DNA of 64,000 nucleotides from Escherichia coli (GCF_013315695.1 NZ_CP054353.1), one strand, 5' to 3'. Counted from the first letter of the stretch, positions 16,449 through 39,729 are shown. Program-made: numbers and translations. Notes: generated from the sequence alone by a model not told the origin.

Positions 16449-16476
16449 ATGCTCTGGATAAGGATCATCCAATTCT

Positions 16477-17536: not shown

Positions 17537-17551
17537 GTTGGAGTCATTACC

Positions 17552-18357: not shown

Positions 18358-18365
18358 ATCCTCCT

Positions 18366-18390
18366 GCCCGCTGTTATGGCGGGCTTTTTC
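18366..18390 (+). terminator. Rho-independent terminator after ompN
   Basis: Stem gcccgc / gcgggc with 6-nt loop followed by TTTTT. Confidence 0.6.
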
Positions 18391-18416
18391 TGCTTATTCT
18401 TCCTCCTTTGATCTAA

Positions 18417-18932
<516 letters not shown>

Positions 18933-18939
18933 CACTAAC

Positions 18940-18965
18940 GCCCGCACATTGCTGCGGGCTTTTTG
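18940..18965 (+). terminator. Rho-independent terminator after uspF
   Basis: Stem gcccgca / tgcgggc with 6-nt loop followed by TTTTT. Confidence 0.6.
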
Positions 18966-19107
18966 ATTCATTTCGCAAATGTGCTGACATTTTCCCCTCT
19001 AATCCGTACCATACACGCCACAGTTTTTATATCAGATTTCTTATGCTGGGCGTTCCGGCATGACGCATACTCTTCTGATGCCATATAACGAATTGAGTCG
19101 CTTTTAA

Positions 19108-19161
19108 ATGTCGCAAAATCAAGAAATTAGTAAGAAAGAACAATACAACCTGAACAAGTAA
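19108..19161 (+). pseudogene. ttcC: ttcA-like 5-prime fragment marking the prophage attR
   Basis: ATG TCG CAA AAT CAA GAA ATT AGT AAG AAA GAA CAA TAC AAC CTG AAC AAG TAA encodes [17 protein letters not shown], a diverged copy of the TtcA N-terminus ([17 protein letters not shown]) at 33431. Confidence 0.7.
19132..19157. repeat. Prophage attachment core, right copy (26-bp direct repeat)
   Basis: aagaaagaacaatacaacctgaacaa, identical to 33455..33480 inside the ttcA start. Confidence 0.75.
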
Positions 19162-19257
19162 GGGCAAAAATCACAACTCTCTGACTCATAAGTATTTTAC
19201 TTATTTTTCAATGTGTTAAATATCATCAGCGACAACAATAAGCTACGATAACCCACT

Positions 19258-19310
19258 CTTTTTTTGCCCCTTTTTTGCCCCTTTTGCAGCGCTTTGCCCC
19301 ATTTTTGCCA
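19258..19310. repeat. Cluster of four TTTTGCC(CC) direct repeats
   Basis: tttttgcccc ttttttgcccc ttttgcagcgc tttgcccc atttttgcca; between attR and the sitA regulatory region. Confidence 0.4.
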
Positions 19311-19421
19311 TCAACAATTTTCCTCATCAAGTCATTTCAAAGCCTAATAGGTGCCCTACTTTTTTCCTCAGTACCACGTCGCCAGCAGGAAACAACCTAA
19401 TCCCGGTTCGGATCTAAAATT

Positions 19422-19440
19422 GCTAATGATAATCATTTTC
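19422..19440 (+). promoter_or_regulatory. Fur box upstream of sitA
   Basis: gctaatgataatcattttc matches the 19-bp Fur consensus GATAATGATAATCATTATC at 16/19 positions. Confidence 0.6.
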
Positions 19441-19462
19441 ATTTTGTATTGCTTATGCTATA

Positions 19463-19484
19463 AAACATAGCCGTTGCTATGTTT
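19463..19484 (+). promoter_or_regulatory. MntR operator upstream of sitA
   Basis: Perfect palindrome aaacatagc-cgtt-gctatgttt, the MntR-box architecture, 33 bp upstream of the sitA ATG. Confidence 0.7.
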
Positions 19485-19516
19485 GTTCTAATTTTGCTCA
19501 CTATAGGTACTAAATT

Positions 19517-20431
19517 ATGTACTCAATAAAAAAAGTAACCATGCTCTTGGGGTGCCTCGCCCTCACCTGCTCGATCGCATTTCAGGCGAGTGCAACTGAA
19601 AAATTCAAGGTCATTACAACATTTACCATCATCGCAGATATGGCCAAAAACGTGGCTGGAGATGCTGCAGAAGTCTCATCCATAACCAAGCCCGGTGCAG
19701 AAATTCATGAGTATCAGCCTACCCCTGGCGATATTAAACGTGCGCAGGAGGCACAACTGATTCTCGCCAATGGTATGAATCTGGAATTGTGGTTCCAACG
19801 CTTTTACCAGCATCTTAATGGGGTTCCAGAAGTAATTGTCTCTTCGGGTGTGACGCCAGTAGGGATCACTGAAGGCCCCTATGAGGGCAAACCTAACCCC
19901 CATGCCTGGATGTCGCCAGATAATGCTCTGATTTACGTCGATAATATTCGTGATGCGTTGATAAAATACGATCCGGCAAATGCACAAACCTACCAACGTA
20001 ATGCCGATACTTATAAAGCCAAGATTACCCAAACCCTTGCCCCCCTGCGTAAGCAGATTGCTGAACTCCCTGAGAATCAGCGATGGATGGTCACCAGTGA
20101 AGGGGCTTTTTCTTATCTCGCACGCGATTTGGGGCTAAAAGAGCTTTATCTGTGGCCGATTAATGCCGATCAACAAGGCACGCCGCAGCAGGTACGTAAG
20201 GTTGTTGATATGGTGAAGAAAAATCATATCCCGGCAGTCTTTAGCGAGAGTACGATTTCCGATAAACCAGCGCGTCAGGTTGCGCGTGAAACCGGCGCGC
20301 ACTACGGCGGTGTACTCTATGTCGATTCCCTGAGCACAGAAAACGGCCCGGTACCTACGTATATCGACCTTCTGAAGGTTACTACCAGTACGCTGGTACA
20401 GGGAATTAAAGCCGGGAAAAGGGAGAAATAA
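19517..20431 (+). CDS. sitA: Mn/Fe ABC transporter periplasmic substrate-binding protein SitA
   Basis: 304-aa ORF with signal peptide, cluster-9 metal-binding family (SitA/YfeA/MntC-like). Confidence 0.9.
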
Positions 20432-21258
20432 TGATGCAATCTGCGGGCATTGTCGTTAATGATGTTACTGTCACCTGGCGTAACGGGCACACAGCACTGC
20501 GCGATGCATCCTTCACAGTACCAAGTGGATCTATTGCCGCTCTGGTTGGGGTAAACGGTTCCGGAAAATCGACGTTGTTTAAAGCGATTATGGGATTTGT
20601 GCGTCTGACCAGCGGAAAGATATCTGTTCTGGGTATTCCCACGCGACAGGCGCTACAGAAAAACCTGGTTGCCTACGTCCCTCAGTCAGAAGAGGTTGAC
20701 TGGTCATTTCCTGTACTAGTGGAAGATGTGGTGATGATGGGCCGCTATGGGCACATGGGTATGTTGCGTATAGCCAAAAAGAGGGATCGTCAGATTGTCA
20801 CCGATGCGCTGGAACGTGTCGATATGGTGGATTTTCGCCATCGACAAATCGGCGAGCTTTCCGGTGGACAAAAGAAACGCGTCTTTCTGGCGAGAGCGAT
20901 TGCACAGCAGGGTGATGTGATCCTGCTGGATGAACCTTTTACCGGCGTTGATGTGAAAACCGAAGCGAAAATCATCAGCCTGTTGAGGGAGTTACGCGCG
21001 GAAGGCAAGACGATGCTTGTCTCAACGCACAATCTCGGCTCAGTCACGACATTTTGCGATTATACGGTCATGGTCAAAGGCACCGTCCTGGCAAGCGGGC
21101 CGACAGACACCACTTTTACAGCCGAGAACCTGGAGCTGGCTTTTAGCGGCGTACTGCGCCATGTCACACTTAACGCCTCGGAAGAAAGCATTATTACTGA
21201 CGATGAACACCCTTTTGTGGCACATCGACCGTCAGCGGTGCAGAGGGAAGCAAGATGA
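20431..21258 (+). CDS. sitB: Mn/Fe ABC transporter ATP-binding protein SitB
   Basis: 275-aa ORF with Walker [13 protein letters not shown] signature LSGGQKKR and Walker B ILLDEP. Confidence 0.9.
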
Positions 21259-22112
21259 ACGTGCTACTGGAACCCTTCAGCTATGAATATATGCTCAATG
21301 CGATGTGGGTCTCGGCGATGGTCGGCGGTCTCTGCGCTTTCCTGTCATGCTATCTGATGCTAAAAGGCTGGTCGCTGATTGGCGATGCGCTGTCGCACTC
21401 TATTGTCCCGGGTGTTGCGGGGGCATATATGCTGGGGCTTCCGTTTTCTCTGGGAGCCTTCTTTTCCGGCGGACTGGCAGCGGGCAGCATGCTGTTTCTT
21501 AACCAACGCACTCGCTTAAAAGAAGATGCCATCATCGGCCTGATCTTCTCCTCCTTTTTTGGCCTGGGGCTGTTTATGGTGTCATTGAACCCGACATCCG
21601 TGAACATTCAGACCATCGTCCTAGGCAATATTCTGGCAATCGATCCGGCGGATATCCTGCAACTCACTATCATTGGCATTCTCTCGATCATCGTGCTTTT
21701 TTTCAAATGGAAAGATCTTATGGTGACCTTTTTCGACGAGAATCACGCCCGTGCTATTGGATTGCATCCGGGCAGATTAAAAATCCTCTTCTTCACCCTG
21801 CTGTCGGTTTCGACCGTTGCGGCGCTGCAAACGGTTGGTGCCTTTCTGGTGATCTGTCTGGTGGTGACTCCCGGTGCAACAGCATGGTTGTTAACCGATC
21901 GTTTTCCCCGCCTGCTCATAATTGCTGTAACTATTGGCAGTGTAACCAGTTTCCTCGGCGCGTGGGTCAGTTACTTTCTGGACGGCGCGACAGGTGGAAT
22001 CATCGTGGTGGCGCAGACACTGCTGTTTCTTTTAGCATTTGTATTTGCGCCCACCCATGGGCTTTTGGCAAATCGTCGGCGTGCGCATAAAGCGCTGGAG
22101 GATCGCTCATGA
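21255..22112 (+). CDS. sitC: Mn/Fe ABC transporter permease SitC
   Basis: 285-aa polytopic membrane ORF; start overlaps the sitB stop. Confidence 0.9.
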
Positions 22113-22966
22113 TGGCATTATTACTGGAGCCACTGCAGTTCACCTTTATGAGTCACGCACTGCTGATTTCACTGGTAGTTTCCATACCCTGTGCGCTGCT
22201 GTCGGTCTTTCTGGTCCTGAAAGGTTGGGCACTGATGGGTGACGCGATGAGTCATGCGGTTTTTCCTGGCATCGTGCTTGCCTGGATTCTGGGGTTACCT
22301 CTGGCTACAGGGGCATTTATCGCCGGAGTATTCTGCGCGGTGGCGACGGGATACCTGAAAGACAACAGCCGAATCAAGCAAGATACAGTGATGGGGATTG
22401 TTTTTTCTGGCATGTTTGCCGCAGGTCTGATCTTGTATATTGCAGTCAAACCAGACATACATCTTGACCATATTCTTTTCGGCGACATGCTCGGGGTAAC
22501 CATCGGCGATATAATCCAGACGATGATTATTGCCGGGCTGGTTACACTTGTTATTAGCGTAAAATGGCGGGATTTTTTGCTGTTCAGCTTTGATTATCAA
22601 CAGGCGCAGGTAAGCGGTTTGCATACGCGATGGCTGCATTATGGGCTGCTGTGCATGGTTTCCCTGACCATTGTGGCGACGCTGAAAGCAGTAGGTATCA
22701 TTCTCTCCATTTCTCTGCTCATTGCGCCTGGCGCCATTGCGGTACTCCTGACACAACGCTTTCATATTGCACTCCTACTGGCGACTGGCATATCGGTAAT
22801 AGTCTCAATGACTGGTGTTTGGCTGTCCTTTTTTATCGACAGCGCACCCGCTCCGACGATTGTCGTCTTATTCGCGGTTGTGTTCATCATGACGTTTACC
22901 GTTATCAGTTTCAACGCACGCACAAAGGGAAACGCTCATAGACAGGATCTGTTATCCCCCAATTAG
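22109..22966 (+). CDS. sitD: Mn/Fe ABC transporter permease SitD
   Basis: 285-aa polytopic membrane ORF paralogous to SitC; start overlaps the sitC stop. Confidence 0.9.
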   Translation: MMALLLEPLQFTFMSHALLISLVVSIPCALLSVFLVLKGWALMGDAMSHAVFPGIVLAWILGLPLATGAFIAGVFCAVATGYLKDNSRIKQDTVMGIVFSGMFAAGLILYIAVKPDIHLDHILFGDMLGVTIGDIIQTMIIAGLVTLVISVKWRDFLLFSFDYQQAQVSGLHTRWLHYGLLCMVSLTIVATLKAVGIILSISLLIAPGAIAVLLTQRFHIALLLATGISVIVSMTGVWLSFFIDSAPAPTIVVLFAVVFIMTFTVISFNARTKGNAHRQDLLSPN

Positions 22967-23077
22967 CACAACATCCGAGGGCAGCATTGTCCGCTAGTAC
23001 ACTGCAGTCCAGAAAGTCATGGGCGGACGTTGGGAGGAGGCGCTAATCCTTTCATACAAAAAATATGTAAAATCAAT

Positions 23078-23150
23078 AACGGCTGTAAATCATTCAATAC
23101 TCGCACTATCGGAAGTTCACCAGCCAGCCGCAGCACGTTCTTGCATACGA
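23078..23150. repeat. Diverged direct repeat, left copy (3-prime end of a small membrane-protein gene plus downstream sequence)
   Basis: aatcattcaatactcgcactatcg matches 24557..24580 at 22/24; similarity continues through cttgcatacgacgtg. Reverse strand encodes ...LALSIVIGGLVKLKPQTRRMQERAAAGW* with no start codon. Confidence 0.5.
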
Positions 23151-23417
23151 CGTGTCTGCGGTTTCAACTTCACCAGTCCACCAATCACGATGGACAGTGC
23201 CAAGACAGCACTAGCAAAAACAGGAAATTAGCAGTCTCAGCAGAACACCGACCAGACGGTGAAGAAACAAAAAAGGATACGCAAAGGGGCCGCAGTTCCC
23301 GATTGATAAAAAAGCCAGCTTATGCGCTTTTTTTTCATGTATTATTAAGTATTGGTTAGCGTCTTTTTAATCAGAACTTTAAAGACAAGCCATTTGTAAG
23401 AAAACCGACAGATTCGG

Positions 23418-24233
23418 TTGACAAGCAGGAGTAATACTTTGGACATAAGAAAAGATTTGGAATCAGTAGCCCAATATATAAGTAGACTGTTATCGATAGG
23501 GTACGAATTTAGCCGTTTTGATAAAGACTGGGTCCATTTAAAAAATGAAGAGGATTTTCGTTTTATTTCAAGAATACCATTTGCAACACGGAATAAAGTG
23601 GAAGCAGTATATGCGGAAGGCAGAGATATGGCACTTTATATGTCTGATGAGTTACTATCCATTAATAGTGATTTCAGTAAATTTCCAACGTTGACAGCTA
23701 TTATCGAAAGATTCAAGGACACTTGGGTTTATGGTAATTATGATTCGGAAGTGCCAAATATAGCTAAAAAAACATGCGAAGAAAATGCAGTTCAGCTTTG
23801 GTCTGTAGAACAGATGTGTTCCTTATTCAAAAAGCAAGAACAACTATTAGCAGCAGTACGTATCACATTGCAGATGCTACAAGATAGTGACCTATACAAG
23901 ATGGAGAATGGTTTACCTCTTATGAAACAAGAAGCTAATATTCATGTCAGTGGAATTTCCGGTTCTAGTATCAATATACATTCTTCAGGTGCTACGGCAA
24001 CTACTACGACAAATTATAATGAGCCCACAATATTTAATGAAATGATTGAGGCAATAAAATCGAAAAACTTTGATGGCGCGACAGAATCACACCTTATAGA
24101 TAATGTACAGGCACTGGCAGCCAGTCACCAAAGCGGCTGTTTTAAAGAAGCATATAAGGACTTTATTAATAATGTATCTGCACACATTACAGTATTTACT
24201 CCATTTCTTGCTGGCATATCATCTTTACTATAA
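23418..24233 (+). CDS. Orphan hypothetical protein in AT-rich islet (function unknown)
   Basis: 271-aa ORF from the track; no in-frame ATG near the 5-prime end, likely start TTG at 23439 with AGGAG 8 nt upstream; AT-rich codon usage unlike flanking genes; C-terminal low-complexity Ser/Thr stretch and hydrophobic tail. Confidence 0.5.
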   Translation: MTSRSNTLDIRKDLESVAQYISRLLSIGYEFSRFDKDWVHLKNEEDFRFISRIPFATRNKVEAVYAEGRDMALYMSDELLSINSDFSKFPTLTAIIERFKDTWVYGNYDSEVPNIAKKTCEENAVQLWSVEQMCSLFKKQEQLLAAVRITLQMLQDSDLYKMENGLPLMKQEANIHVSGISGSSINIHSSGATATTTTNYNEPTIFNEMIEAIKSKNFDGATESHLIDNVQALAASHQSGCFKEAYKDFINNVSAHITVFTPFLAGISSLL

Positions 24234-24556
24234 AATAAGTGACAGATACATTAATACATAACGAAAAATCTTTTTAGCTACTCATTCATATCAATAGTGC
24301 CCTACCATAGGGCACATTATTCGTGGAACTCGTTTATGACAAAAGAATTTTGATGGTCTGCCTGATGCAACAGATATAATTCTGGGAGTGTTGAGTAAGA
24401 GTATTCACCGGCGCTCAACACAAATGCCAGCAAGCACGAGAAAGAGCAGGTAAGCCTGAGTGTTCAGGAAATGTTTGAAAAGGCTAATATGTGGCTGGTT
24501 TCAGATTAAACGCCTTGAACCGTCATATTACTTAAGTACAATCCGCCTAGACTAGC

Positions 24557-24630
24557 AATCATTCAATAGTAGCACTATCGAGCGCTCGCCAGTCGAGCGC
24601 AATCATGCTCCTTGCATACGGCGTGCAGCA
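24557..24630. repeat. Diverged direct repeat, right copy
   Basis: aatcattcaatagtagcactatcg ... cttgcatacggcgtg; partner of 23078..23150. Confidence 0.5.
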
Positions 24631-24778
24631 TATCACAAAACGATTACGCCATGACGGACTGCAGGCTACTCAATATCTGGCTCGATTAGCGTATTGGCAT
24701 GATTTAACAGACCCCGGCGCTTATTCCCAGCAACCTGAAGCGGCACCTCTTCCTGTGTTGCGTTTACAACTCCCTTTT

Positions 24779-25072
24779 TCACCCACGATTAACCAACAGC
24801 CAGACCAGCAGACAAGCCACCACCGGCACAGAAAAATCCATCAGGCTTGCCACATCCCACACGCGCGGATCAAAACCACCCCACCACGGCATATTCATAC
24901 GCTTGCCATGCCCGAACATTTCAATCCAGCGATATTCTGCCTGGGTATGTTCACGAGCAATGAAGAACGTACAACCGGCTATCGCCCCGTAAGCCCAGTT
25001 TCCGGTAAAAAGACCAACCAGTACCTGCGCAGCCACAGCACAAAGTGCATGAAGGAAAGGTGTTATATCCAT
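24779..25072 (-). CDS. Small hydrophobic (probable inner-membrane) protein, function unknown
   Basis: ORF track 24779..25087; ATG at 25070-25072 preceded by AGGA; MDITPFLHALCAVAAQVLVGLF... with about three predicted TM segments; its C-terminus is homologous to the fragment encoded by the left direct repeat. Confidence 0.5.
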   Translation of the reverse strand: MDITPFLHALCAVAAQVLVGLFTGNWAYGAIAGCTFFIAREHTQAEYRWIEMFGHGKRMNMPWWGGFDPRVWDVASLMDFSVPVVACLLVWLLVNRG

Positions 25073-25148
25073 TTTCATCCTACCCAATAAAACGAGGCGC
25101 TCGGCCCCTTAATATTATTTAGACGCAAGCGTCGGTAATGACTCCAAC

Positions 25149-25652
25149 TTATTGATAGTGTTTTATGTTCAGATAATGCCCGATGACTTTGTCATGCAGC
25201 TCCACCGATTTTGAGAACGACAGCGACTTCCGTCCCAGCCGTGCCAGGTGCTGCCTCAGATTCAGGTTATGCCGCTCAATTCGCTGCGTATATCGCTTGC
25301 TGATTACGTGCAGCTTTCCCTTCAGGCGGGATTCATACAGCGGCCAGCCATCCGTCATCCATATCACCACGTCAAAGGGTGACAGCAGGCTCATAAGACG
25401 CCCCAGCGTCGCCATAGTGCGTTCACCGAATACGTGCGCAACAACCGTCTTCCGGAGCCTGTCATACGCGTAAAACAGCCAGCGCTGGCGCGATTTAGCC
25501 CCGACATAGCCCCACTGTTCGTCCATTTCCGCGCAGACGATGACGTCACTGCCCGGCTGTATGCGCGAGGTTACCGACTGCGGCCTGAGTTTTTTAAGTG
25601 ACGTAAAATCGTGTTGAGGCCAACGCCCATAATGCGGGCTGTTGCCCGGCAT
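25149..25652 (-). CDS. insB: IS1 InsB frame
   Basis: 167-aa ORF identical to the other InsB copies. Confidence 0.9.
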
Positions 25653-25846
25653 CCAACGCCATTCATGGCCATATCAATGATTTTCTGGTGCGTACCGGGT
25701 TGAGAAGCGGTGTAAGTGAACTGCAGTTGCCATGTTTTACGGCAGTGAGAGCAGAGATAGCGCTGATGTCCGGCGGTGCTTTTGCCGTTACGCACCACCC
25801 CGTCAGTAGCTGAACAGGAGGGACAGCTGATAGAAACAGAAGCCAC
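25571..25846 (-). CDS. insA: IS1 InsA
   Basis: 91-aa ORF identical to the other InsA copies. Confidence 0.95.
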
Positions 25847-25925
25847 TGGAGCACCTCAAAAACACCATCATACACTAAATCAGTAAGTTGGCAGCATCAC
25901 CCCCGGCGTTAAGGGGAGAGATAAG

Positions 25926-26060
25926 ATGGTGCATTACGAAGTAGTTCAGTATTTGATGGATTGTTGCGGTATCACTTACAACCAGGCTGTGCAGGCTTTA
26001 CGCAGCAACGCCTGGGATCTCTGGCAGGCAGAAGTCGCTATACGTAGCAACAAGATGTGA
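25926..26060 (+). CDS. ydaG: Rac-prophage small protein (YdaG-like, 44 aa)
   Basis: Below the ORF-track cutoff; ATG 25926 to TGA 26058-26060 encodes MVHYEVVQYLMDCCGITYNQAVQALRSNAWDLWQAEVAIRSNKM; assigned by size and position next to sieB. Confidence 0.5.
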   Translation: MVHYEVVQYLMDCCGITYNQAVQALRSNAWDLWQAEVAIRSNKM

Positions 26061-26070
26061 GATTCGCAAA

Positions 26071-26226
26071 ATGCAAAAAATCGACCTCGGCAACAACGAA
26101 TCCCTGGTGTGCGGCGTGTTCCCCAACCAGGATGGAACGTTCACTGCCATGACGTATACCAAAAGCAAAACATTTAAAACCGAAACTGGTGCGCGCCGAT
26201 GGTTGGAGAAGCACACAGTAAGCTAA
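26071..26226 (+). CDS. ydaF: Rac-prophage small protein (YdaF-like, 51 aa)
   Basis: Below the ORF-track cutoff; ATG 26071 to TAA 26224-26226 encodes MQKIDLGNNESLVCGVFPNQDGTFTAMTYTKSKTFKTETGARRWLEKHTVS; convergent with sieB. Confidence 0.5.
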   Translation: MQKIDLGNNESLVCGVFPNQDGTFTAMTYTKSKTFKTETGARRWLEKHTVS

Positions 26227-26711
26227 CGATTAAAACGTCTACTCCTGCTGTTCCAGAATAACTTCATAAAATGGGAGTATTTTTCGGTGACGAGATAATA
26301 AGAACAGTTTGCGCTATCACTCTGATGTTGAATGATGCCCTTCCGTTCTAATTTTTTCATAACCGGGTTACGGCAAGGAGAAGTGATAATAAGATTTCCT
26401 GTTTTAAGGAAATCTTTAAATACAGCGATTTCTTTCTCAGATAAACGAAGCAATACTCGTTGCTCTGGTAGTAATGAATAATGCTTTTGAATATGTGCTC
26501 GCAATCTTGAGAAGGAAATGGCGACCACGAAAGAAAAGGCAAAAACGATAATCTGAAAGAGCCAAGGTATTTCAGTATAAGCATTGAATGCGACAGTAAA
26601 CTCTTTCGGTATCAGCCAGAGAGTGAGACCAAAAATGATAATCGTATACATAAGTCTTTCGAGTGGCTCGTTAGCAAAAAGTTTCAATAATGGAGTAGAT
26701 ACATCCAACAT
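26223..26711 (-). CDS. sieB: Superinfection exclusion protein B
   Basis: ORF track 26223..26834; ATG at 26709-26711 gives MLDVSTPLLKLFANEPLERLMYTIIIFGLTLWLIP... (162 aa) with two TM helices. Confidence 0.85.
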   Translation of the reverse strand: MLDVSTPLLKLFANEPLERLMYTIIIFGLTLWLIPKEFTVAFNAYTEIPWLFQIIVFAFSFVVAISFSRLRAHIQKHYSLLPEQRVLLRLSEKEIAVFKDFLKTGNLIITSPCRNPVMKKLERKGIIQHQSDSANCSYYLVTEKYSHFMKLFWNSRSRRFNR

Positions 26712-27151
26712 ATCAATAACTCTCAACTGTAAGGGTATTGAAATGTTAACACAAGCTCTCGCTGTAGGGGTATAGCCGAGACCACCGAAGCCCGGAGGTG
26801 GTGAAATAAAACCGGGCACAACACGAAGGCGCATTTCCGATATCCATAAAGAGTCGGTCTTGTCTGTTAAATTTAAATGGTGGGAGTGCGCCTCCGGTTG
26901 TAAATAACGACATTGCTGTGTGTAGTCCTGGCGGCATCAGTTTTTTCTTGAAGTTCGGCTGATGTCCGCCCTTTTTTAAGTGAATTTTGTGATGCGGTGA
27001 ATGCGGCTAAGCGCACGTGGCACAGTTAAAAGTCATGTTAGTCCTTATTGGTTTGGGTGGGAAAGCCGACTGTAATTGTTAACTGGTTGCAGTCACCTGG
27101 AGGCACCAGGCACCGCATCAACAAAGTTCATTTGTAAAAATGGAGATAATT

Positions 27152-27373
27152 ATGATTGCACATCACTTCGGAACTGATGAAATACCACGTCAGTGTGTGA
27201 CTCCTGGCGATTATGTTCTTCATGAAGGCCGGACATATATTGCCTCGGCAAACAATATTAAAAAGCGAAAACTATATATTCGTAACCTGACCACAAAAAC
27301 ATGCATTACTGACCGCATGATTAAAGTCTTCCTCGGTCGTGATGGTTTACCTGTAAAGGCGGAGTCATGGTGA
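27152..27373 (+). CDS. kilR: Rac-prophage killing protein KilR (FtsZ inhibitor)
   Basis: ORF track 27140..27373; ATG at 27152 after GGAG gives [42 protein letters not shown]... (73 aa). Confidence 0.9.
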
Positions 27374-27543
27374 TGACTAAGAAAATAAAATGTGCTTACC
27401 ACCTTTGCAAAAAAGACGTTGAAGAAAGCAAAGCTATTGAAAGAATGCTTCACTTCATGCACGGGATTTTATCAAAAGACGAACCGAGAAAATATTGCAG
27501 TGAATCTTGTGCCGAAAAAGACCAGATGGCACATGAACTTTAA
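27373..27543 (+). CDS. ydaE: Rac-prophage small zinc-binding protein YdaE
   Basis: Below the ORF-track cutoff; ATG overlaps the kilR TGA (TGATG); [56 protein letters not shown] (56 aa) with a Cys-rich motif. Confidence 0.7.
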   Translation: MTKKIKCAYHLCKKDVEESKAIERMLHFMHGILSKDEPRKYCSESCAEKDQMAHEL

Positions 27544-27617
27544 TTAATTGACTATTCGAAACTGAATTTATGCCAGAAATGGCAGGTATTCGCTCAACCT
27601 TAATTAAGGAGAAAAAC

Positions 27618-27893
27618 ATGATTACCAATTATGAAGCCACTGTTGTAACTACCGATGACATTGTTCACGAGGTGAATCTGGAAGGAAAGCGCATTGGCTA
27701 CGTAATTAAAACAGAAAATAAAGAAACCCCATTCACTGTGGTTGATATCGATGGTCCATCAGGCAACGTAAAAACACTTGATGAAGGTGTCAAAAAAATG
27801 TGCCTGGTGCATATCGGAAAGAATCTGCCCGCAGAAAAAAAAGCCGAATTTCTGGCAACTCTAATTGCAATGAAATTAAAAGGTGAAATCTGA
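27618..27893 (+). CDS. racC: Rac-prophage protein RacC
   Basis: ORF track 27570..27893; ATG at 27618 gives MITNYEATVVTTDDIVHEVNLEGKRIGYVIKTENKETPF... (91 aa). Confidence 0.85.
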   Translation: MITNYEATVVTTDDIVHEVNLEGKRIGYVIKTENKETPFTVVDIDGPSGNVKTLDEGVKKMCLVHIGKNLPAEKKAEFLATLIAMKLKGEI

Positions 27894-27994
27894 AAGAAAT
27901 AGCCTGCGTATGGCGCAGGCTATGAACAGTGTGTATCCGGCAAGATCATTCACTGAACAAAACGAATTTTAATCTGAGTTGAGGTTAAAAAACA

Positions 27995-30595
27995 ATGAGC
28001 ACAAAACCACTCTTCCTGTTACGGAAAGCGAAAAAATCATCCGGTGAACCTGACGTCGTCCTGTGGGCAAGCAACGATTTTGAATCGACCTGTGCCACTC
28101 TGGACTACCTGATCGTTAAGTCAGGTAAAAAACTGAGCAGCTATTTTAAAGCTGTTGCCACGAATTTTCCTGTCGTTAATGACCTGCCCGCTGAAGGTGA
28201 GATCGATTTTACCTGGAGTGAACGCTATCAACTCAGCAAAGACTCCATGACATGGGAACTAAAACCGGGAGCAGCACCAGACAACGCTCACTATCAAGGC
28301 AATACCAACGTCAACGGCGAAGACATGACTGAGATTGAGGAGAATATGCTACTCCCAATTTCTGGCCAGGAACTGCCCATTCGTTGGCTTGCTCAACACG
28401 GCAGCGAAAAACCGGTAACGCACGTTTCACGCGACGGACTCCAGGCATTACACATTGCTCGGGCTGAAGAACTACCGGCTGTTACTGCCCTGGCTGTTTC
28501 CCACAAAACCAGCCTGCTCGACCCGCTGGAAATTCGCGAACTCCACAAACTGGTTCGTGACACTGACAAAGTTTTCCCTAATCCTGGTAATTCAAACCTG
28601 GGACTGATAACTGCTTTTTTCGAAGCATACCTGAACGCTGACTACACCGATCGAGGACTGCTGACAAAAGAGTGGATGAAGGGTAATCGTGTTTCACACA
28701 TCACTCGCACGGCTTCCGGTGCTAATGCTGGCGGCGGAAACCTCACCGATCGCGGCGAAGGTTTCGTACACGATCTGACGTCACTGGCGCGCGACGTAGC
28801 CACTGGCGTACTGGCCCGTTCAATGGATCTGGACATCTATAACCTTCATCCGGCACACGCTAAACGCATTGAGGAAATTATCGCTGAAAATAAACCGCCC
28901 TTTTCTGTTTTCCGCGACAAATTCATCACCATGCCTGGCGGGCTGGATTATTCCCGCGCCATCGTGGTTGCGTCCGTAAAAGAAGCACCAATTGGGATCG
29001 AGGTCATCCCCGCGCACGTCACTGAATATCTGAACAAAGTACTGACTGAAACCGATCATGCCAACCCTGATCCGGAAATCGTGGATATTGCCTGCGGTCG
29101 CTCCTCTGCCCCGATGCCGCAGCGAGTAACAGAAGAAGGAAAACAGGATGATGAAGAAAAACCGCAACCATCTGGAACAACGGCAGTTGAACAGGGAGAG
29201 GCTGAAACAATGGAACCGGACGCAACTGAACATCATCAGGACACGCAGCCGCTGGATGCTCAGTCACAGGTAAATTCTATTGATGCGAAATATCAGGAAC
29301 TGCGGGCAGAACTCCATGAAGCCCGGAAAAACATTCCATCAAAAGATCCTGTCGATGCCGATAAATTGCTTGCTGCATCACGTGGTGAATTTGTTGACGG
29401 AATTAGCGACCCGAACGATCCGAAATGGGTAAAGGGGATCCAGACTCGCGATTGTGTGTACCAGAACCAGCCAGAAACGGAAAAAACCAGCCCGGATATG
29501 AATCAACCTGAGCCAGTAGTGCAACAGGAACCGGAAATAGCCTGCAATGCCTGCGGCCAGACTGGCGGGGATAACTGCCCTGACTGTGGTGCGGTGATGG
29601 GCGACGCAACATACCAGGAAACATTCGATGAAGAGAGTCAGGTTGAAGCTAAGGAAAATGATCCGGAGGAAATGGAAGGCGCTGAACATCCGCACAATGA
29701 GAATGCTGGCAGCGATCCGCATCGCGATTGCAGTGATGAAACTGGCGAAGTCGCAGATCCCGTAATCGTAGAAGACATAGAGCCAGGTATTTATTACGGA
29801 ATTTCGAATGAGAATTACCACGCGGGTCCCGGTGTCAGTAAGTCTCAGCTCGATGACATTGCTGATACTCCGGCACTATATTTGTGGCGTAAAAATGCCC
29901 CCGTTGACACCACAAAGACAAAAACGCTCGATTTAGGAACCGCTTTCCACTGCCGGGTACTTGAACCGGAAGAATTCAGTAACCGCTTTATCGTAGCACC
30001 TGAATTTAACCGCCGTACAAACGCCGGAAAAGAAGAAGAGAAAGCGTTTCTGATGGAATGCGCAAGCACAGGAAAAACAGTTATCACTGCGGAAGAAGGC
30101 CGGAAAATTGAACTCATGTATCAAAGCGTTATGGCTTTGCCGCTGGGGCAATGGCTTGTTGAAAGCGCCGGACACGCTGAATCATCAATTTACTGGGAAG
30201 ATCCTGAAACAGGAATTTTGTGTCGGTGCCGTCCGGACAAAATTATCCCTGAATTTCACTGGATCATGGACGTGAAAACTACGGCGGATATTCAACGATT
30301 CAAAACCGCTTATTACGACTACCGCTATCACGTTCAGGATGCATTCTACAGTGACGGTTATGAAGCACAGTTTGGAGTGCAGCCAACTTTCGTTTTTCTG
30401 GTTGCCAGCACAACTATTGAATGCGGACGTTATCCGGTTGAAATTTTCATGATGGGCGAAGAAGCAAAACTGGCAGGTCAACAGGAATATCACCGCAATC
30501 TGCGAACCCTGTCTGACTGCCTGAATACCGATGAATGGCCAGCTATTAAGACATTATCACTGCCCCGCTGGGCTAAGGAATATGCAAATGACTAA
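27995..30595 (+). CDS. recE: Exodeoxyribonuclease VIII (RecE)
   Basis: 866-aa [44 protein letters not shown]...; full length with the C-terminal nuclease domain; overlaps the recT start by 8 nt. Confidence 0.95.
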
Positions 30596-31397
30596 GCAAC
30601 CACCAATCGCAAAAGCCGATCTGCAAAAAACTCAGGGAAACCGTGCACCAGCAGCAGTTAAAAATAGCGACGTGATTAGTTTTATTAACCAGCCATCAAT
30701 GAAAGAGCAACTGGCAGCAGCTCTTCCACGCCATATGACGGCTGAACGTATGATCCGTATCGCCACCACAGAAATTCGTAAAGTTCCGGCGTTAGGAAAC
30801 TGTGACACTATGAGTTTTGTCAGTGCGATCGTACAGTGTTCACAGCTCGGACTTGAGCCAGGTAGCGCCCTCGGTCATGCATATTTACTGCCTTTTGGTA
30901 ATAAAAACGAAAAGAGCGGTAAAAAGAACGTTCAGCTAATCATTGGCTATCGCGGCATGATTGATCTGGCTCGCCGTTCTGGTCAAATCGCCAGCCTGTC
31001 AGCCCGTGTTGTCCGTGAAGGTGACGAGTTTAGCTTCGAATTTGGCCTTGATGAAAAGTTAATACACCGCCCGGGAGAAAACGAAGATGCCCCGGTTACC
31101 CACGTCTATGCTGTCGCAAGACTGAAAGACGGAGGTACTCAGTTTGAAGTTATGACGCGCAAACAGATTGAGCTGGTGCGCAGCCTGAGTAAAGCTGGTA
31201 ATAACGGGCCGTGGGTAACTCACTGGGAAGAAATGGCAAAGAAAACGGCTATTCGTCGCCTGTTCAAATATCTGCCCGTATCAATTGAGATCCAGCGTGC
31301 AGTATCAATGGATGAAAAGGAACCACTGACAATCGATCCTGCAGATTCCTCTGTATTAACCGGGGAATACAGTGTAATCGATAATTCAGAGGAATAA
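30588..31397 (+). CDS. recT: Single-strand annealing recombinase RecT
   Basis: ORF track 30531..31397; ATG at 30588 gives [35 protein letters not shown]... (269 aa). Confidence 0.95.
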
Positions 31398-31453
31398 TTC
31401 AGCCTGGCGGTGTAATGCACCGCCAACTTGAAATATTTTTTATGAGAAAAATT

Positions 31454-31648
31454 ATGAGATATGACAATGTTAAACCATGTCCATTTTGTGGTTGTCCATC
31501 AGTAACGGTGAAAGTCATTTCAGGATATTACCGAGCGAAGTGTAACGGATGCGAATCCCGAACCGGTTATGGTGGAAGTGAAAAAGAAGCACTCGAAAGA
31601 TGGAATAAACGAACCACTGGAAATAATAACGGAGGTGTTCATGTATAA
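31454..31648 (+). CDS. ralR: Restriction-alleviation protein / type I toxin RalR (Lar)
   Basis: ORF track 31415..31648; ATG at 31454 gives MRYDNVKPCPFCGCPSVTVKVISGYYRAKCNGCESRTGYGG... (64 aa). Confidence 0.85.
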   Translation: MRYDNVKPCPFCGCPSVTVKVISGYYRAKCNGCESRTGYGGSEKEALERWNKRTTGNNNGGVHV

Positions 31649-31829
31649 AATTACCGCCACTATTGAAAAGGAAGGTGGCACTCCTACTAACTGGACAAGA
31701 TATTCAAAATCTAAACTAACGAAATCAGAATGCGAAAAAATGCTCTCAGGTAAAAAAGAAGCAGGCGTTTCCAGAGAGCAGAAAGTAAAACTGATAAATT
31801 TTAATTGCGAGAAACTTCAGTCCTCGTGA
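31641..31829 (+). CDS. ydaC: Rac-prophage protein YdaC
   Basis: ORF track 31569..31829; ATG at 31641 (GGAGG upstream) gives MYKITATIEKEGGTPTNWTRYSKSKL... (62 aa); overlaps the ralR 3-prime end by 8 nt. Confidence 0.7.
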   Translation: MYKITATIEKEGGTPTNWTRYSKSKLTKSECEKMLSGKKEAGVSREQKVKLINFNCEKLQSS

Positions 31830-31928
31830 ATTGCATTGTATTCAAATTAAAACTTCATAGCTGATTATTAATAATCAACATCGGGCGTCAATTTCAGTCT
31901 AACATTGGCGCCTGCCAGAGGTGATGCG

Positions 31929-32144
31929 ATGGCACAAGTAATCTTTAATGAAGAGTGGATGGTTGAATACGGCCTGATGCTTCGCACTGGTCTGGGGGCC
32001 AGACAAATTGAAGCATACCGCCAGAACTGTTGGGTGGAGGGCTTCCACTTCAAACGAGTATCTCCTTTAGGTAAGCCAGACAGCAAACGAGGGATTATCT
32101 GGTACAACTATCCAAAGATAAATCAGTTTATCAAAGACTCATGA
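31929..32144 (+). CDS. xisR: Rac-prophage excisionase
   Basis: ORF track 31905..32144; ATG at 31929 gives [44 protein letters not shown]... (71 aa); stop overlaps the intR start region. Confidence 0.8.
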
Positions 32145-32145
32145 T

Positions 32146-33379
32146 ATGTCTAAATTACCAACAGGTGTCGAGATTAGAGGTAGATACATTCGCATCTGGT
32201 TCATGTTTCGAGGAAAACGATGTCGGGAAACATTAAAAGGCTGGGAGATTACAAACAGTAATATTAAAAAGGCCGGAAATTTAAGAGCGCTGATAGTTCA
32301 TGAAATAAACTCCGGTAAATTTGAGTATTTAAGACGTTTTCCCCAGTCCAGCACTGGGGCAAAAATGGTGATAACGAGAGTCATAAAAACGTTCGGAGAG
32401 CTTTGTGATATCTGGACAAAAATTAAAGAGACAGAGTTAACAACAAACACAATAAAGAAAACGAAATCACAATTAAAAACACTCAGAATAATAATTTGTG
32501 AAAGTACCCTGATATCACATATTCGTTATAGCGATATCTTAAACTACCGGAATGAACTGCTGCATGGAGAAACGCTTTACCTGGATAATCCAAGATCCAA
32601 CAAAAAAGGAAGAACCGTGCGCACAGTTGATAACTATATCGCCCTGCTCTGTTCGCTGTTACGTTTTGCGTATCAGTCGGGATTTATATCAACCAAACCA
32701 TTTGAAGGAGAAAAAATTACAGCGAAACAGAATAAAGCCTGATCCGTTATCTAAAACAGAATTCAATGCATTAATGGAAAGTGAAAAAGGACAGAGCCAG
32801 AACATGTGGAAATTTGCAGTTTACTCAGGACTTCGTCACGGGGAACTGGCAGCTCTGGCGTGGGAGGATGTGGATCTCGAAAAGGGAATAGTGAATGTCA
32901 GAAGAAACCTGACGATACTTGATATGTTCGGTCCCCCAAAAACAAATGCCGGGATCCGGACAGTAACACTACTGCAGCCTGCTCTTGAAGCACTGAAGGA
33001 GCAATACAAACTGACCGGGCATCATCGCAAAAGCGAAATCACCTTTTATCATCGGGAGTACGGCAGAACCGAAAAGCAAAAACTGCATTTTGTTTTCATG
33101 CCCAGGGTGTGTAACGGAAAACAAAAACCTTATTACTCGGTAAGCAGTTTGGGGGCAAGGTGGAATGCAGCAGTAAAACGTGCTGGTATTCGCCGCCGTA
33201 ATCCGTACCATACGCGGCATACTTTTGCCTGCTGGCTGTTGACGGCAGGAGCGAACCCGGCATTTATAGCCAGCCAAATGGGGCATGAAACTGCGCAGAT
33301 GGTGTATGAAATTTACGGTATGTGGATTGATGACATGAACGACGAACAGATAGCCATGTTGAATGCGCGGTTATCATAG
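32146..33379 (+). pseudogene. intR: Rac-prophage tyrosine integrase, apparently split by a +/-1 frameshift near 32709-32716
   Basis: ORF 32146..32742 (198 aa, ...STKPFEGEKITAKQNKA*) and ORF 32552..33379 carry the N- and C-terminal parts (catalytic ...HTRHTFACWLL...) in adjacent frames; frames switch in the run gagaaaaaatt; the sum of the parts is about 411 codons. Confidence 0.7.
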
Positions 33380-33430
33380 TTGCAAAGTTTGCCCCCAATT
33401 TGCCCCATTTAGTACCAGAGAACTGAAATA

Positions 33431-34366
33431 ATGCAAGAAAATCAACAAATTACAAAGAAAGAACAATACAACCTGAACAAATTACAAAAACGTCTGCGTC
33501 GTAACGTGGGCGAAGCCATTGCTGACTTCAATATGATTGAAGAAGGCGATCGCATCATGGTTTGCCTCTCCGGGGGTAAAGACAGCTATACCATGCTGGA
33601 AATTCTGCGCAATTTGCAGCAAAGCGCGCCAATCAATTTTTCGCTGGTGGCTGTTAACCTCGATCAAAAACAACCGGGCTTCCCGGAACACGTTCTGCCC
33701 GAGTATCTTGAAAAGCTGGGCGTTGAGTACAAGATTGTGGAAGAGAACACTTACGGTATCGTGAAAGAGAAGATTCCGGAGGGCAAAACCACTTGCTCAC
33801 TGTGTTCTCGTCTTCGTCGCGGTATCCTTTATCGCACCGCAACGGAACTGGGGGCGACGAAGATCGCGTTGGGTCACCATCGTGACGATATCCTGCAAAC
33901 GCTGTTCTTAAATATGTTCTACGGCGGCAAGATGAAAGGTATGCCTCCGAAACTGATGAGCGATGATGGCAAACATATCGTGATTCGCCCGCTGGCCTAC
34001 TGCCGCGAGAAAGATATTCAGCGCTTTGCCGATGCAAAAGCGTTCCCGATTATTCCGTGCAACCTGTGCGGTTCACAGCCTAACCTGCAACGTCAGGTGA
34101 TTGCTGACATGTTGCGTGACTGGGATAAACGTTATCCGGGGCGTATCGAGACGATGTTCAGCGCGATGCAGAATGTGGTGCCATCGCATCTGTGCGATAC
34201 CAACCTGTTCGATTTCAAAGGCATTACCCACGGTTCTGAAGTGGTTAACGGGGGTGATCTGGCGTTTGATCGCGAAGAGATCCCTCTACAACCGGCGGGT
34301 TGGCAGCCTGAAGAAGATGAAAATCAGTTGGATGAGTTACGACTGAATGTGGTTGAAGTGAAATAA
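33431..34366 (+). CDS. ttcA: tRNA 2-thiocytidine(32) synthetase TtcA
   Basis: 311-aa ORF with PP-loop SGGKDS and CxxC motifs; the att core lies inside its first 50 nt. Confidence 0.95.
33455..33480. repeat. Prophage attachment core, left copy (26-bp direct repeat)
   Basis: aagaaagaacaatacaacctgaacaa, identical to 19132..19157. Confidence 0.75.
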
Positions 34367-34371
34367 CCCGG

Positions 34372-34450
34372 ATAGCGCCCGATGCGCAAGCTTATCGGGC
34401 TACTCTTATGGAGGCCGGAGAAGACGCGGCCAGCGTCGCATCCGGCAATC
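34372..34450. repeat. REP/BIME-type extragenic palindromes
   Basis: cccgatgcgcaagcttatcgggc and gcggccagcgtcgcatccggc resemble REP consensus units in opposite orientations, between convergent ttcA and dbpA. Confidence 0.5.
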
Positions 34451-34494
34451 CCGAAGAAGATGTTTACTCTTGCACCCGGCAATTCAACATTTCA

Positions 34495-35868
34495 TTATTT
34501 TAATAACCGCACCCGGCACGTTTTTCCTTTAATCTTCCCGCCCTGTAACTGTTTCCATGCTTTATGAGCAACAGCCTGACGCACCGCGACATAGACATGC
34601 GCCGGATGCACGGCGATTTTGCCAATATCTGCGCCATCAAGCCCGATGTCTCCTGTCAGCGCACCTAATACATCACCCGGGCGCATTTTGGCTTTTTTCC
34701 CGCCATCGATACATAACGTTGCCATTTCTGCTTCCAGCGGCACAATGGAACTATTAACTGGCGGCGTTTGCCAGTTAAGTTTTATCTGCAACATGTCAGA
34801 AATGATATTGGCCCGCTGTGCTTCTTCCGGGGCACAGAAACTGATCGCCAGACCGCTATTTCCTGCACGAGCTGTACGGCCGATGCGATGTACATGAACT
34901 TCAGGGTCCCACGCCAGCTCAAAGTTCACCACCAGCTCAAGCGATTTTATATCCAGACCACGCGCAGCAACATCAGTCGCGACCAGTACACGGGCGCTAC
35001 CGTTAGCAAAACGGACCAGGGTCTGATCGCGATCACGTTGCTCCAGATCGCCGTGTAACGACAATGCACTTTGCCCTACTTCATTCAGCGCGTCGCAGAC
35101 AGCCTGGCAATCTTTTTTGGTATTGCAAAACACCACGCAAGAGGATGGCTGATGCAAACTTAATAACCGTTGCAACAGCGGAATTTTGCCTTTGCTGGAT
35201 GTCTCATAAAATTGTTGTTCAATGGGAGGCAGAGCATCTGTTGAGTCAATTTCAATCGCCAATGGATCGCGTTGCACTCGTCCGCTGATTGCGGTGATGG
35301 CTTCCGGCCAGGTTGCCGAAAACAGAAGCGTCTGTCGAGATGCTGGCGCAAAACGGATAACATCATCAATGGCATCGCTAAATCCCATATCCAGCATGCG
35401 ATCGGCTTCATCCATCACCAGCATATTCAACGCATCCAGTGATACCGTGCCTTTTTGCAGATGGTCCAGCAAACGACCCGGGGTTGCCACGATAATATGC
35501 GGCGCATGTTGCAACGAATCACGCTGCATACCGAACGGTTGACCACCGCACAACGTCAAAATTTTGGTATTTGGCAGAAAACGCGCCAGCCGACGCAATT
35601 CACCTGCTACCTGATCCGCCAGTTCACGCGTAGGACACAGCACTAAAGCCTGGGTTTGAAATAGCGACGCATCAATTTGCTGTAACAAGCCGAGGCCAAA
35701 AGCCGCCGTTTTGCCACTGCCGGTTTTCGCCTGCACGCGAACATCTTTTCCGGCAAGGATCGCCGGAAGCGCGGCGGCCTGCACCGGCGTCATGGTTAAA
35801 TAACCCAACTCATTAAGGTTCGTGAGTTGGGCGGGAGGCAAAACATTCAGGGTAGAAAAAGCGGTCAC
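34495..35868 (-). CDS. dbpA: ATP-dependent 23S rRNA helicase DbpA (DEAD-box)
   Basis: 457-aa ORF with AKTGSGKT, DEAD and SAT motifs. Confidence 0.95.
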   Translation of the reverse strand: MTAFSTLNVLPPAQLTNLNELGYLTMTPVQAAALPAILAGKDVRVQAKTGSGKTAAFGLGLLQQIDASLFQTQALVLCPTRELADQVAGELRRLARFLPNTKILTLCGGQPFGMQRDSLQHAPHIIVATPGRLLDHLQKGTVSLDALNMLVMDEADRMLDMGFSDAIDDVIRFAPASRQTLLFSATWPEAITAISGRVQRDPLAIEIDSTDALPPIEQQFYETSSKGKIPLLQRLLSLHQPSSCVVFCNTKKDCQAVCDALNEVGQSALSLHGDLEQRDRDQTLVRFANGSARVLVATDVAARGLDIKSLELVVNFELAWDPEVHVHRIGRTARAGNSGLAISFCAPEEAQRANIISDMLQIKLNWQTPPVNSSIVPLEAEMATLCIDGGKKAKMRPGDVLGALTGDIGLDGADIGKIAVHPAHVYVAVRQAVAHKAWKQLQGGKIKGKTCRVRLLK

Positions 35869-35897
35869 AATCTATTCTCGTGGTCATCGACGCAAAG

Positions 35898-39722: not shown

Positions 39723-39729
39723 TGCAGTT

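Follow-up and report, generated by a model that had tools for sequence, protein, structure and literature searches.

In this study, we analyzed a window of 64,000 nucleotides of Escherichia coli DNA and found that a 14.3-kb segment within it is, with a probability of about 0.9, a single element: a decayed Rac-type lambdoid prophage at the 5' end of ttcA that carries sitABCD as ordinary cargo. This figure applies to the whole reading, namely IntR-type integration, native cargo, an IS1-linked deletion, loss of intR and a remnant locked in place. Between the two att cores lie sitABCD, a small orphan module, an IS1 copy and then the genes from ydaG through intR (Table 1). The gene list given in an earlier note on this DNA was confirmed by the RefSeq annotation of strains MSB1_4I and AF3, whose sequence is identical over window 19000-34000, with two exceptions: intR was a frameshifted pseudogene, an inactivation which that note had missed, and the 'ydaC' of the note was a 62-aa DUF1187 allele of rcbA/ydaC.

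First, both boundaries of the element were those of Rac. The 26-mer AAGAAAGAACAATACAACCTGAACAA was present as an exact copy in each core, and the positions that the earlier note had proposed, one within a ttcA-like fragment of 17 codons and the other within the ttcA start, were confirmed by coordinates and by comparison with the empty-site strain SCU-313. The same 26-mer bounds both ends of the 'cryptic prophage Rac' feature in K-12 MG1655, which also upheld the identification of these repeats as Rac att cores; the K-12 counterpart of the 17-codon fragment is annotated as the ttcC pseudogene. The repeat extended to 43 nt with 93% identity (19115-19157 versus 33438-33480), an exact 26-mer pair would be expected by chance in 64 kb at approximately 5e-7 (our own arithmetic), and comparison with K-12 Rac revealed only two Rac att cores in the window. 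In SCU-313, uspF was followed directly by ttcA, with the start MSQNQEISKKEQ. This empty site matched the left copy in the window at 249/250 nt to the core end and then at only 16/60 nt; against the right copy, 225/226 nt agreed from the core on. Empty-site homology stopped exactly at the core. The N-terminus of TtcA differed from the empty-site form by four amino acids, and these differences matched those described in PMC4632033. The phage entered by IntR-type site-specific recombination into the ttcA 5' end and, as the comparison shows, provided a substitute ttcA start while the original 17 codons were stranded beside uspF. Immediately inside the att on the uspF side, 152 bp were common to K-12 Rac, and the sit cassette started directly after them. 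In addition, five of the eight copies of TTTGCCCC in the window adjoined the two cores; these repeats are probably arm-type integrase sites, and phage 21 has annotated arm sites at the equivalent place.

Table 1. Features of the decayed prophage and its borders, in window coordinates
Feature	Position	Strand	Basis or remark
ttcC' fragment, original ttcA 5' end (17 codons + stop)	19108..19161	+	equals SCU-313 ttcA start; ttcC pseudogene in K-12
uspF-side att core (attR, K-12 naming)	19132-19157		within ttcC'
Distal Rac backbone end, common to K-12 Rac	19158..19310	.	K-12 match 17552-19310, 98.5% identity
Three TTTGCCCC repeats	19263-19300		within distal Rac backbone end
sit promoter region	19422..19484	+	Fur box and MntR-type palindrome
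sitA	19517-20431	+
sitB	20431-21258	+
sitC	21255-22112	+
sitD	22109-22966	+
45-nt imperfect direct repeat, copy 1	23088..23132	+
Orphan 264-aa gene	23439..24233	+	36-37% GC
DinI-like pseudogene, frameshifted	24323..24509	+	RefSeq annotation of identical sequence
45-nt imperfect direct repeat, copy 2	24557-24601
97-aa phage membrane protein (phrog_1443)	24779..25072	-	adjoins side tail-fibre genes in phage 21 and full-length prophages
Tail-fibre gene, last 19 bp (left deletion edge)	25115..25133	-	comparison with 98205
IS1A copy C, 768 bp, at deletion scar	25134..25901	-	no 9-bp target duplication
Rac early-left region	25902..32144	+ except sieB (-)	RefSeq annotation; one 10.1-kb HSP, 99.1% identity to K-12 Rac
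ydaG	25926-26060	+
ydaF	26071-26226	+
sieB	26223-26711	-
kilR	27152-27373	+
ydaE	27373-27543	+
racC	27618-27893	+
recE	27995-30595	+
recT	30588-31397	+
ralR	31454-31648	+
DUF1187/ydaC-like	31641-31829	+
RalA antitoxin sRNA (RalR/RalA type I toxin-antitoxin)	31647..31825	-	Rfam RF02694, 225 bits, E 1e-53
xisR, full length	31929-32144	+
intR pseudogene	32146..33379	+	alignment with K-12 intR; RefSeq 'frameshifted'
Two TTTGCCCC repeats, between intR and ttcA	33388..33406	+
ttcA with phage-supplied 5' end	33431..34366	+	annotation of identical sequence; SCU-313 comparison
int-side att core (attL)	33455-33480		within ttcA start

Second, the gene content between the cores was of the Rac type. Both intR (as a pseudogene) and xisR adjoin the ttcA-side att, and the early-left genes follow in the order ralR-recT-recE-racC-ydaE-kilR-sieB-ydaF-ydaG. 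The window was 99.1% identical to K-12 Rac from ydaG to intR, and the same identity through dbpA bore out the Rac-like character that had been claimed for the integrase-proximal half. The two elements also share the integration site, the 26-bp core, the ttcC' fragment, the four-residue TtcA change and the 152 bp on the distal att side. They differ in that K-12 Rac lacks sit but has retained the stretch from racR to the tail-fibre genes, whereas sitABCD with the orphan module, the IS1 scar and the frameshifted intR are found only in the window. Alignment against the prophage of strain 98205 showed that the immunity region (racR/ydaS/ydaT), replication genes and late genes are absent from the window; since these were deleted, the element should be regarded as a remnant and not as a non-member of the Rac type.

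The remnant is grounded, and virion production is impossible. Two base pairs are missing from intR between 32710 and 32711, so that the reading frame is lost near codon 189 of 411 and the protein is truncated ahead of its catalytic half; apart from this, nine mismatches to K-12 intR were observed. As the alignment shows, this small deletion is a further decay step that inactivated intR. Excision in cis is predicted to be defective because intR is frameshifted, and self-excision has probably been lost, even though xisR and the two att sites are intact. It is conceivable, albeit unlikely, that the remnant is still mobilisable, with IntR from another Rac-like prophage acting in trans to excise a 14.3-kb sitABCD circle and restore the ancestral ttcA. 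The intact cores, their flanking repeats and the full-length xisR would suit such an event, and K-12 Rac excises upon overproduction of Xis and Int (PMC4632033). However, the integrase resident in the element is broken, and the resulting circle would have neither replication nor packaging genes. Under the preferred reading, sitABCD, recET, kilR, sieB and ralR/RalA would be retained as fixed chromosomal genes.

Third, the missing part of the element could be recognized in strain 98205, which has a near-complete Rac-type prophage of 53,772 bp between the same two cores (NZ_CP173546.1, 1864256-1918053). In this prophage, sitABCD and an identical orphan module (264-aa orphan, DinI and 97-aa genes) adjoin the uspF-side att, directly beyond the genes for the tail fibres, and there is no IS1. 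Its identity to the window was 99.7% over 17552-25134 and 98.6% over 25902-35427, the latter value for the early region indicating a relative rather than a direct ancestor. Only record positions 1870259-1910472 of 98205 (40,214 bp) were missing from the window. They comprise genes for immunity, including racR/ydaS/ydaT, for replication, for lysis and for heads and tails, as well as trkG; at its edges, the deletion has left 24 bp in front of ydaG and the final 19 bp of a tail-fibre gene. Because sitABCD and the orphan module lie between the same cores in 98205, they are native cargo of the phage lineage; by this comparison only the IS1 is secondary, marking what would be a single 40.2-kb internal deletion.

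The earlier note had correctly placed sitABCD inside a prophage att frame, as the coordinates between both cores demonstrate, and had explained this by an independent sitABCD island that joined Rac by fusion or took the place of its distal half, giving two origins in one frame. Such a history would fit the absence of sit from K-12 Rac, whose distal half (racR through tfaR, pinR and ynaE) is unmatched in the window, and the location of the IS1 exactly at the border of the two halves. On the other hand, 98205 already holds sit and the orphan module in the same frame with no IS1, the same att-sitA junction was present in 494 of the 5,426 complete E. coli genomes, the cores number just two, and free phages such as phage 21 hold sit in the same slot. 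A fusion is highly improbable in the face of these observations.

With native cargo as the preferred reading, an IS1-associated event would later have excised the 40.2 kb in one deletion, either by a deletion adjacent to IS1 or by two IS1 copies recombining with each other. Both junctions of the IS1 at the scar occurred in 2 of the 5,426 complete genomes. When each junction was searched in this set, the same two genomes were obtained and no intermediate with just one junction was found; thus, the two routes are not distinguishable. Many genomes seemingly shared the stretch from IS1 to ttcA, which proved to be false; in one that was checked, the IS1 lay between xisR and intR.

The two IS1 copies that bracket sit (16784-17551 and 25134-25901) are inverted and 100% identical, and could be read as the ends of a 9.1-kb composite transposon carrying ompN'-uspF-att-sitABCD-orphan. 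We rejected this reading as exceedingly improbable: the outer flanks of the pair have no common 9-bp duplication, the left copy, which in sister strains lies upstream of ompN, a core gene, is there a simple insertion with its own 9-bp duplication (AAAAGGCAA), and the uspF-att-sitA arrangement is present in hundreds of genomes lacking these IS1 copies. In the genomes that matched 80% or more of the region, no such IS1-bounded unit was found elsewhere or on a plasmid. Finally, a misassembly joining the sit and Rac halves through IS1, a 768-bp repeat with three copies in the window, has a practically negligible chance, as the whole structure, with identical junctions, is present in two complete genomes of independent origin (Australia and the UK) and both halves are in their expected place on the chromosome, between uspF and ttcA; this, together with the 494 genomes sharing the att-sitA junction, excluded the assembly chimera that the earlier note had allowed for.

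The four genes of sitABCD (19517..22966, +) are intact and, according to ORFs and RefSeq names, encode a periplasmic binding protein, an ATPase and two permeases. SitA matched Mn/Zn substrate-binding families with scores below the curated cut-offs, and the 97-100% identity of the operon to published sit operons suggests that SitABCD is an Mn2+/Fe2+ ABC importer. The consensus sequences of Fur and MntR sites are well established. A Fur box upstream of sitA (19422-19440) had 17 of 19 matches to consensus and was the sole site with no more than four mismatches in the 64-kb window, and a perfect MntR-type palindrome, AAACATAGC-N4-GCTATGTTT, was located at 19463-19484. Judging from these motifs, the host may turn on sit under iron or manganese limitation. 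A terminator scan gave no convincing terminator after sitD.

Comparison with other phages showed sitABCD to be usual cargo in this family of phages. Relative to K-12 Rac, where the backbone resumes on either side, the sit cassette spans ~19311-23123; it lies inside the phage genome between late genes and att and is dispensable for the phage cycle, as is typical of a moron. The full-length sit-bearing Rac-type prophages (98205 and the ON032529.1 region) share the att cores, sitABCD and the early-left region with the window, but retain the 40.2 kb and an intact intR. The order in ON032529.1 ('Salmonella phage SPF_0923') is trkG-heads-tails-tail fibres-tfa-sitDCBA-uspF-ompN, and that in phage 21 is side tail fibre, 97-aa gene, sitDCBA, attP and int. 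In phage 21, in Perceval of LF82 and in infant-gut Lambda_ev phages, whose sit genes are 97-98% identical to those in the window, sit is in the same slot before attP/int, in the same orientation to the tail genes and with a Fur box upstream; these phages differ in having other integrases and att sites (icd for phage 21), functional virions and no 264-aa insert. As the comparison shows, the cargo slot of the lineage lies between the side tail-fibre genes and att. The cassette borders are mosaic, as a 133-bp piece downstream of sitD here is on the opposite side of sit in phage 21. Overall, sitABCD was carried by 2,336 of the 5,426 genomes. It has been reported on 70% of gut lambda phages, with a fur box upstream of the phage-borne operon (PMC6969025), and as a moron of phage Perceval (PMC9928086). 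Therefore, a virulence operon in a prophage frame, which had implicitly been taken as a surprise, is commonplace in published work. A search for literature specific to sitABCD in a Rac prophage, to which Fisher et al. (2009) was external, found none.

The remaining cargo is less familiar. A 1.45-kb insert, containing the 264-aa gene and the DinI-like pseudogene, is present in a subset of genomes only and is flanked by the two 45-nt repeats, which are 76% identical; window positions 23162-24611 are missing from strain E01 and phage 21. The AF2 model of the 264-aa protein was confident (pLDDT 86.5), with a helical N-domain (1-156) connected by a disordered linker to a small C-domain (197-262) that is also helical, and Foldseek matched it to an AbiTii-domain protein (E 4.6e-8). 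The Pfam AbiTii domain itself matched neither this protein nor any of 41 family members scanned at E<=0.001. No significant match to the 264-aa protein was found in Pfam, none in PHROG or NCBIfam, and nothing in PDB by sequence or fold search; PADLOC gave a weak candidate match only (PDC-M14B, E 0.0017). Among the 41 longer relatives scanned, the N-domain was fused to effectors in several TIR-type proteins (six matching TIR_2), two CHAT proteins and one PNP_UDP protein, and an architecture of such an N-terminal module with a variable effector is described in PMC3710099. The gene neighbourhoods of three homologues were not conserved, and no partner gene emerged from them. The gene is a candidate anti-phage, abortive-infection-like moron. 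A more specific proposal, which we regard as tentative and rather doubtful, is that it encodes an undescribed single-gene abortive-infection or defence protein, with the AbiTii-like N-domain as a phage sensor and the helical C-domain of ~70 aa as a new effector, on a module of 1.45 kb that would have been inserted between sitD and the tail-fibre genes.

In Shigella flexneri and E. coli, the 'PAI sit' of Fisher et al. (2009) is described, in the summary given by PMC7545054, as sit in deletion-prone, phage-like, IS-rich DNA, and to that extent it resembles the sit operon embedded in phage-like, IS-rich DNA here. At the present locus, the 'pathogenicity island sit' is a decayed Rac-type prophage. 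In one respect this has little significance past correct annotation. It is also a clean case of a phage-borne fitness operon turning into a fixed chromosomal island: the phage would have delivered sitABCD, the IS1-associated deletion would have stripped dangerous or costly genes (the toxic ydaS/ydaT, the repressor racR, lysis and virion genes), and the integrase frameshift would have closed the exit route. The orphan 264-aa candidate defence gene is the only item here that could open new biology; if its proposed role is true, one phage cargo slot would hold a metal-uptake operon plus an immunity gene.

Both borders of the element indicated site-specific integration at ttcA. A 26-mer, AAGAAAGAACAATACAACCTGAACAA, occurs in two exact copies, the left one within a 17-codon ORF and the right one within the ttcA start, and repeat likeness reaches 43 nt at 93% around both cores. 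In K-12 MG1655, the identical 26-mer is carried by both ends of the annotated 'cryptic prophage Rac' (1411899-1434958), and the 17-codon piece is annotated as pseudogene ttcC. In genomes with an empty site, left-flank homology ended precisely at the core end (19157), within an intact ttcA; these two observations uphold the suggestion in the earlier note that the 26-bp repeats are the Rac att cores. In the empty-site strain SCU-313, uspF is directly followed by ttcA, whose start reads MSQNQEISKKEQ; up to the core end, its DNA agreed with the window's left copy at 249/250 nt, falling to 16/60 nt beyond it, and from the core on it agreed with the right copy at 225/226 nt. Thus, ttcA originally began with what is now the left fragment, and its present start was supplied by the phage. 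The resulting TtcA residue differences, Q2S, E3Q, Q6E and T8S, are the four reported for K-12 Rac excision (PMC4632033).

The earlier note had also described a sit island fused with Rac, whose distal half had been replaced. This view had to be abandoned, since strain 98205 (NZ_CP173546.1) contains sitABCD and the orphan module (the three genes beyond sitD) in a prophage that is bounded by these two cores as well and measures 53,772 bp from one core start to the other. It runs uspF, att, sitABCD, the window's 264-aa gene, DinI-like pseudogene and 97-aa gene, then tail fibres, Lom, tail genes, tape measure, ydaY, head genes, terminase, a ParB-like gene, trkG, lysis genes, late regulators, ydaV, ydaT, a repressor pair, ydaF, sieB, kilR, recE, recT, ralR, xisR, intR, att and ttcA. 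The 98205 prophage and the window were 99.7% identical over 17552-25134 and 98.6% over 25902-35427, and the window lacked only record positions 1870259-1910472 (40,214 bp), whose place is occupied by a 768-bp IS1 (copy C). At the left edge of this deletion the final 19 bp of a tail-fibre gene were retained, and the right edge lies 24 bp upstream of ydaG, with all sequence beyond it removed; no 9-bp target duplication was found at the flanks of copy C. The same late region is present in 'Salmonella phage SPF_0923' (GenBank), which ends tfa-sitDCBA-uspF-ompN-nifJ, and strain E01 also has sit in this position, with an IS1-linked deletion of its own. Based on these comparisons, the phage lineage natively carries sitABCD and the orphan module as cargo at its tail-fibre/att end, and one IS1-associated deletion explains the short element. 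Such a deletion may have arisen by IS1 adjacent deletion or by IS1 x IS1 recombination. It removed racR, ydaS and ydaT together; in K-12, loss of racR alone is lethal because ydaS and ydaT are derepressed. In addition, intR has a 2-bp deletion following nucleotide 565 (window 32710/32711), which shifts the frame at about codon 189 of 411, so that the C-terminal half is lost. The element would probably no longer be able to excise by itself.

Over positions 19000-34000, identity was 100% with the E. coli MSB1_4I chromosome (NZ_LR898874.1) and nearly complete with the chromosome of isolate AF3 (NZ_OZ547117.1); outside these positions, the window tracks MSB1_4I except for one 362-bp deletion. The gene order was taken from the RefSeq annotation of the identical sequence.

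Features of the element and its surroundings (window positions; genes of the element in order)
Feature	Position	Remark
IS1A copy A	6598-7365	
MicC	16469-16584	core sRNA gene
IS1A copy B	16784-17551	upstream of ompN
ompN	17552-18357	
Left att core	19132-19157	
sit cassette	19311-23123	insertion relative to K-12 Rac
Predicted Fur box	19422-19440	upstream of sitA; 17/19 matches to consensus
Perfect MntR-type palindrome	19463-19484	upstream of sitA
sitA, sitB, sitC, sitD		first in element order; RefSeq
133-bp segment	23013-23145	downstream of sitD
1.45-kb insert	23162-24611	contains the 264-aa gene
264-aa hypothetical protein	23439-24233	after sitD; RefSeq
Frameshifted DinI-like gene, 97-aa hypothetical protein		next in order; RefSeq
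IS1A copy C	25134-25901	between 97-aa gene and ydaG; RefSeq
ydaG, ydaF, sieB, kilR, ydaE, racC, recE, recT, ralR, DUF1187 (ydaC-like), xisR		after IS1A; RefSeq
RalA antitoxin sRNA	31647-31825	Rfam
Frameshifted intR, then ttcA		last in element order; RefSeq
Right att core	33455-33480	
FnrS	36133-36250	core sRNA gene
McaS	39628-39723	core sRNA gene

Against K-12, window 25902-36000 aligned as a single block from ydaG to dbpA (99.1% identity), and 17552-19310 aligned to ompN-uspF-ttcC and on into Rac for its first 152 bp. Compared with K-12 Rac, the sit cassette is a ~3.8-kb insertion that begins directly after the shared 152 bp, and the K-12 backbone resumes at 23124-23169. The 64-kb window has eight copies of the repeat TTTGCCCC, of which five adjoin the cores, three in the shared piece and two in the gap from intR to ttcA. 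Compared with phage 21, where arm sites P1-P3 are annotated, these five are by analogy putative arm-type integrase sites. The operon, whose G+C content is higher than that of its flanks, points away from att and toward the tail-fibre genes, which lie on the other strand. The Fur box was the sole site in the window with at most four mismatches to consensus, and sit may be under Fur/MntR control. The 133-bp segment has a counterpart in phage 21 (4375-4506, 80% identity) that lies on the att/int side of sit; this opposite placement suggests that the cassette borders are recombination-prone or mosaic.

Some other observations concern nearby loci. The three IS1 copies in the window were identical across 768 bp. 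In MSB1_4I and AF3, copy B is a simple insertion with a 9-bp duplication, AAAAGGCAA. Beside it, 362 bp are missing from the window, among them the right-hand duplication copy and ~328 bp at the start of ompN, which is therefore 5'-truncated; this is consistent with an IS1 adjacent deletion. The difference also shows that the window belongs to neither of these two genomes but to a third, very close relative. Copy A was without a target duplication and borders a ydbD that is truncated at its 5' end; compared with K-12, the window is missing 30.9 kb there (1446191-1477074; feaR, feaB, tynA, the paa cluster, ydbA, pdxI and most of ydbD). At ~63053/63054, a partial ABC permease gene is joined straight to a 5'-truncated ycjT (kojibiose phosphorylase; RefSeq), which suggests that the ycj sugar operon has undergone an internal deletion. 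The SPF_0923 record (ON032529.1) is 98% identical to the window's E. coli locus, and its end (32177-35262) holds uspF, ompN and nifJ, which are core genes of E. coli; it has the look of an excised prophage region plus flanking host DNA, and its host label is probably wrong. The core sRNA genes were ordinary and at expected positions.

The 264-aa gene (G+C 36-37%) belongs to an insert that strain E01 and phage 21 lack and that has an imperfect 45-nt direct repeat on both sides. Its protein had no significant Pfam match, no PHROG or NCBIfam match, only a weak candidate match in PADLOC, and no match among solved structures. Homologues (32-76% identity) are patchy over Gammaproteobacteria and occur in mobile settings, for example within a primase/DUF927 island (Pseudomonas) or prophage DNA (Enterobacter). 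The AlphaFold model (pLDDT 86.5, confident) comprises a helical N-domain, a disordered linker and a small helical C-domain, and predicted-structure matches included AbiTii-domain proteins, a 'restriction endonuclease' and a TIR-type protein. A profile search gave 1,372 cluster representatives, many joining residues 1-160 to other C-termini; among 41 longer relatives scanned, TIR_2 was found in six, other TIR-type families in further members, CHAT in two and PNP_UDP in one. This pattern of an 'N-terminal module plus swappable effector' is known for AbiTii and AbiJ N-domains (PMC3710099). Given these N-domain fusions, the gene appears to be a reasonable candidate for a single-gene phage-defence protein.

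Finally, at least 80% of sitABCD was present in 2,336 of the 5,426 complete E. coli genomes (1,682 chromosomal and 1,060 plasmid places). The uspF-att-sitA junction as in the window occurred in 494 of these genomes, at least 80% of the stretch from the sitD end to IS1 copy C (containing the orphan module) in 103, and the junctions of copy C in two. Phage 21, Perceval and many Lambda_ev phages carry a 97% identical cassette, always in the slot from the side tail-fibre genes to attP/int. Previous studies have already called sit a moron, present on 70% of infant-gut lambda phages with a fur box each (PMC6969025), and listed it among the morons of LF82 prophage Perceval (PMC9928086), and 'PAI sit' has been reviewed as unstable and rich in phage and IS DNA (PMC7545054). 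The feature is a decayed Rac-type prophage with the usual sit moron, an element of a kind already known.
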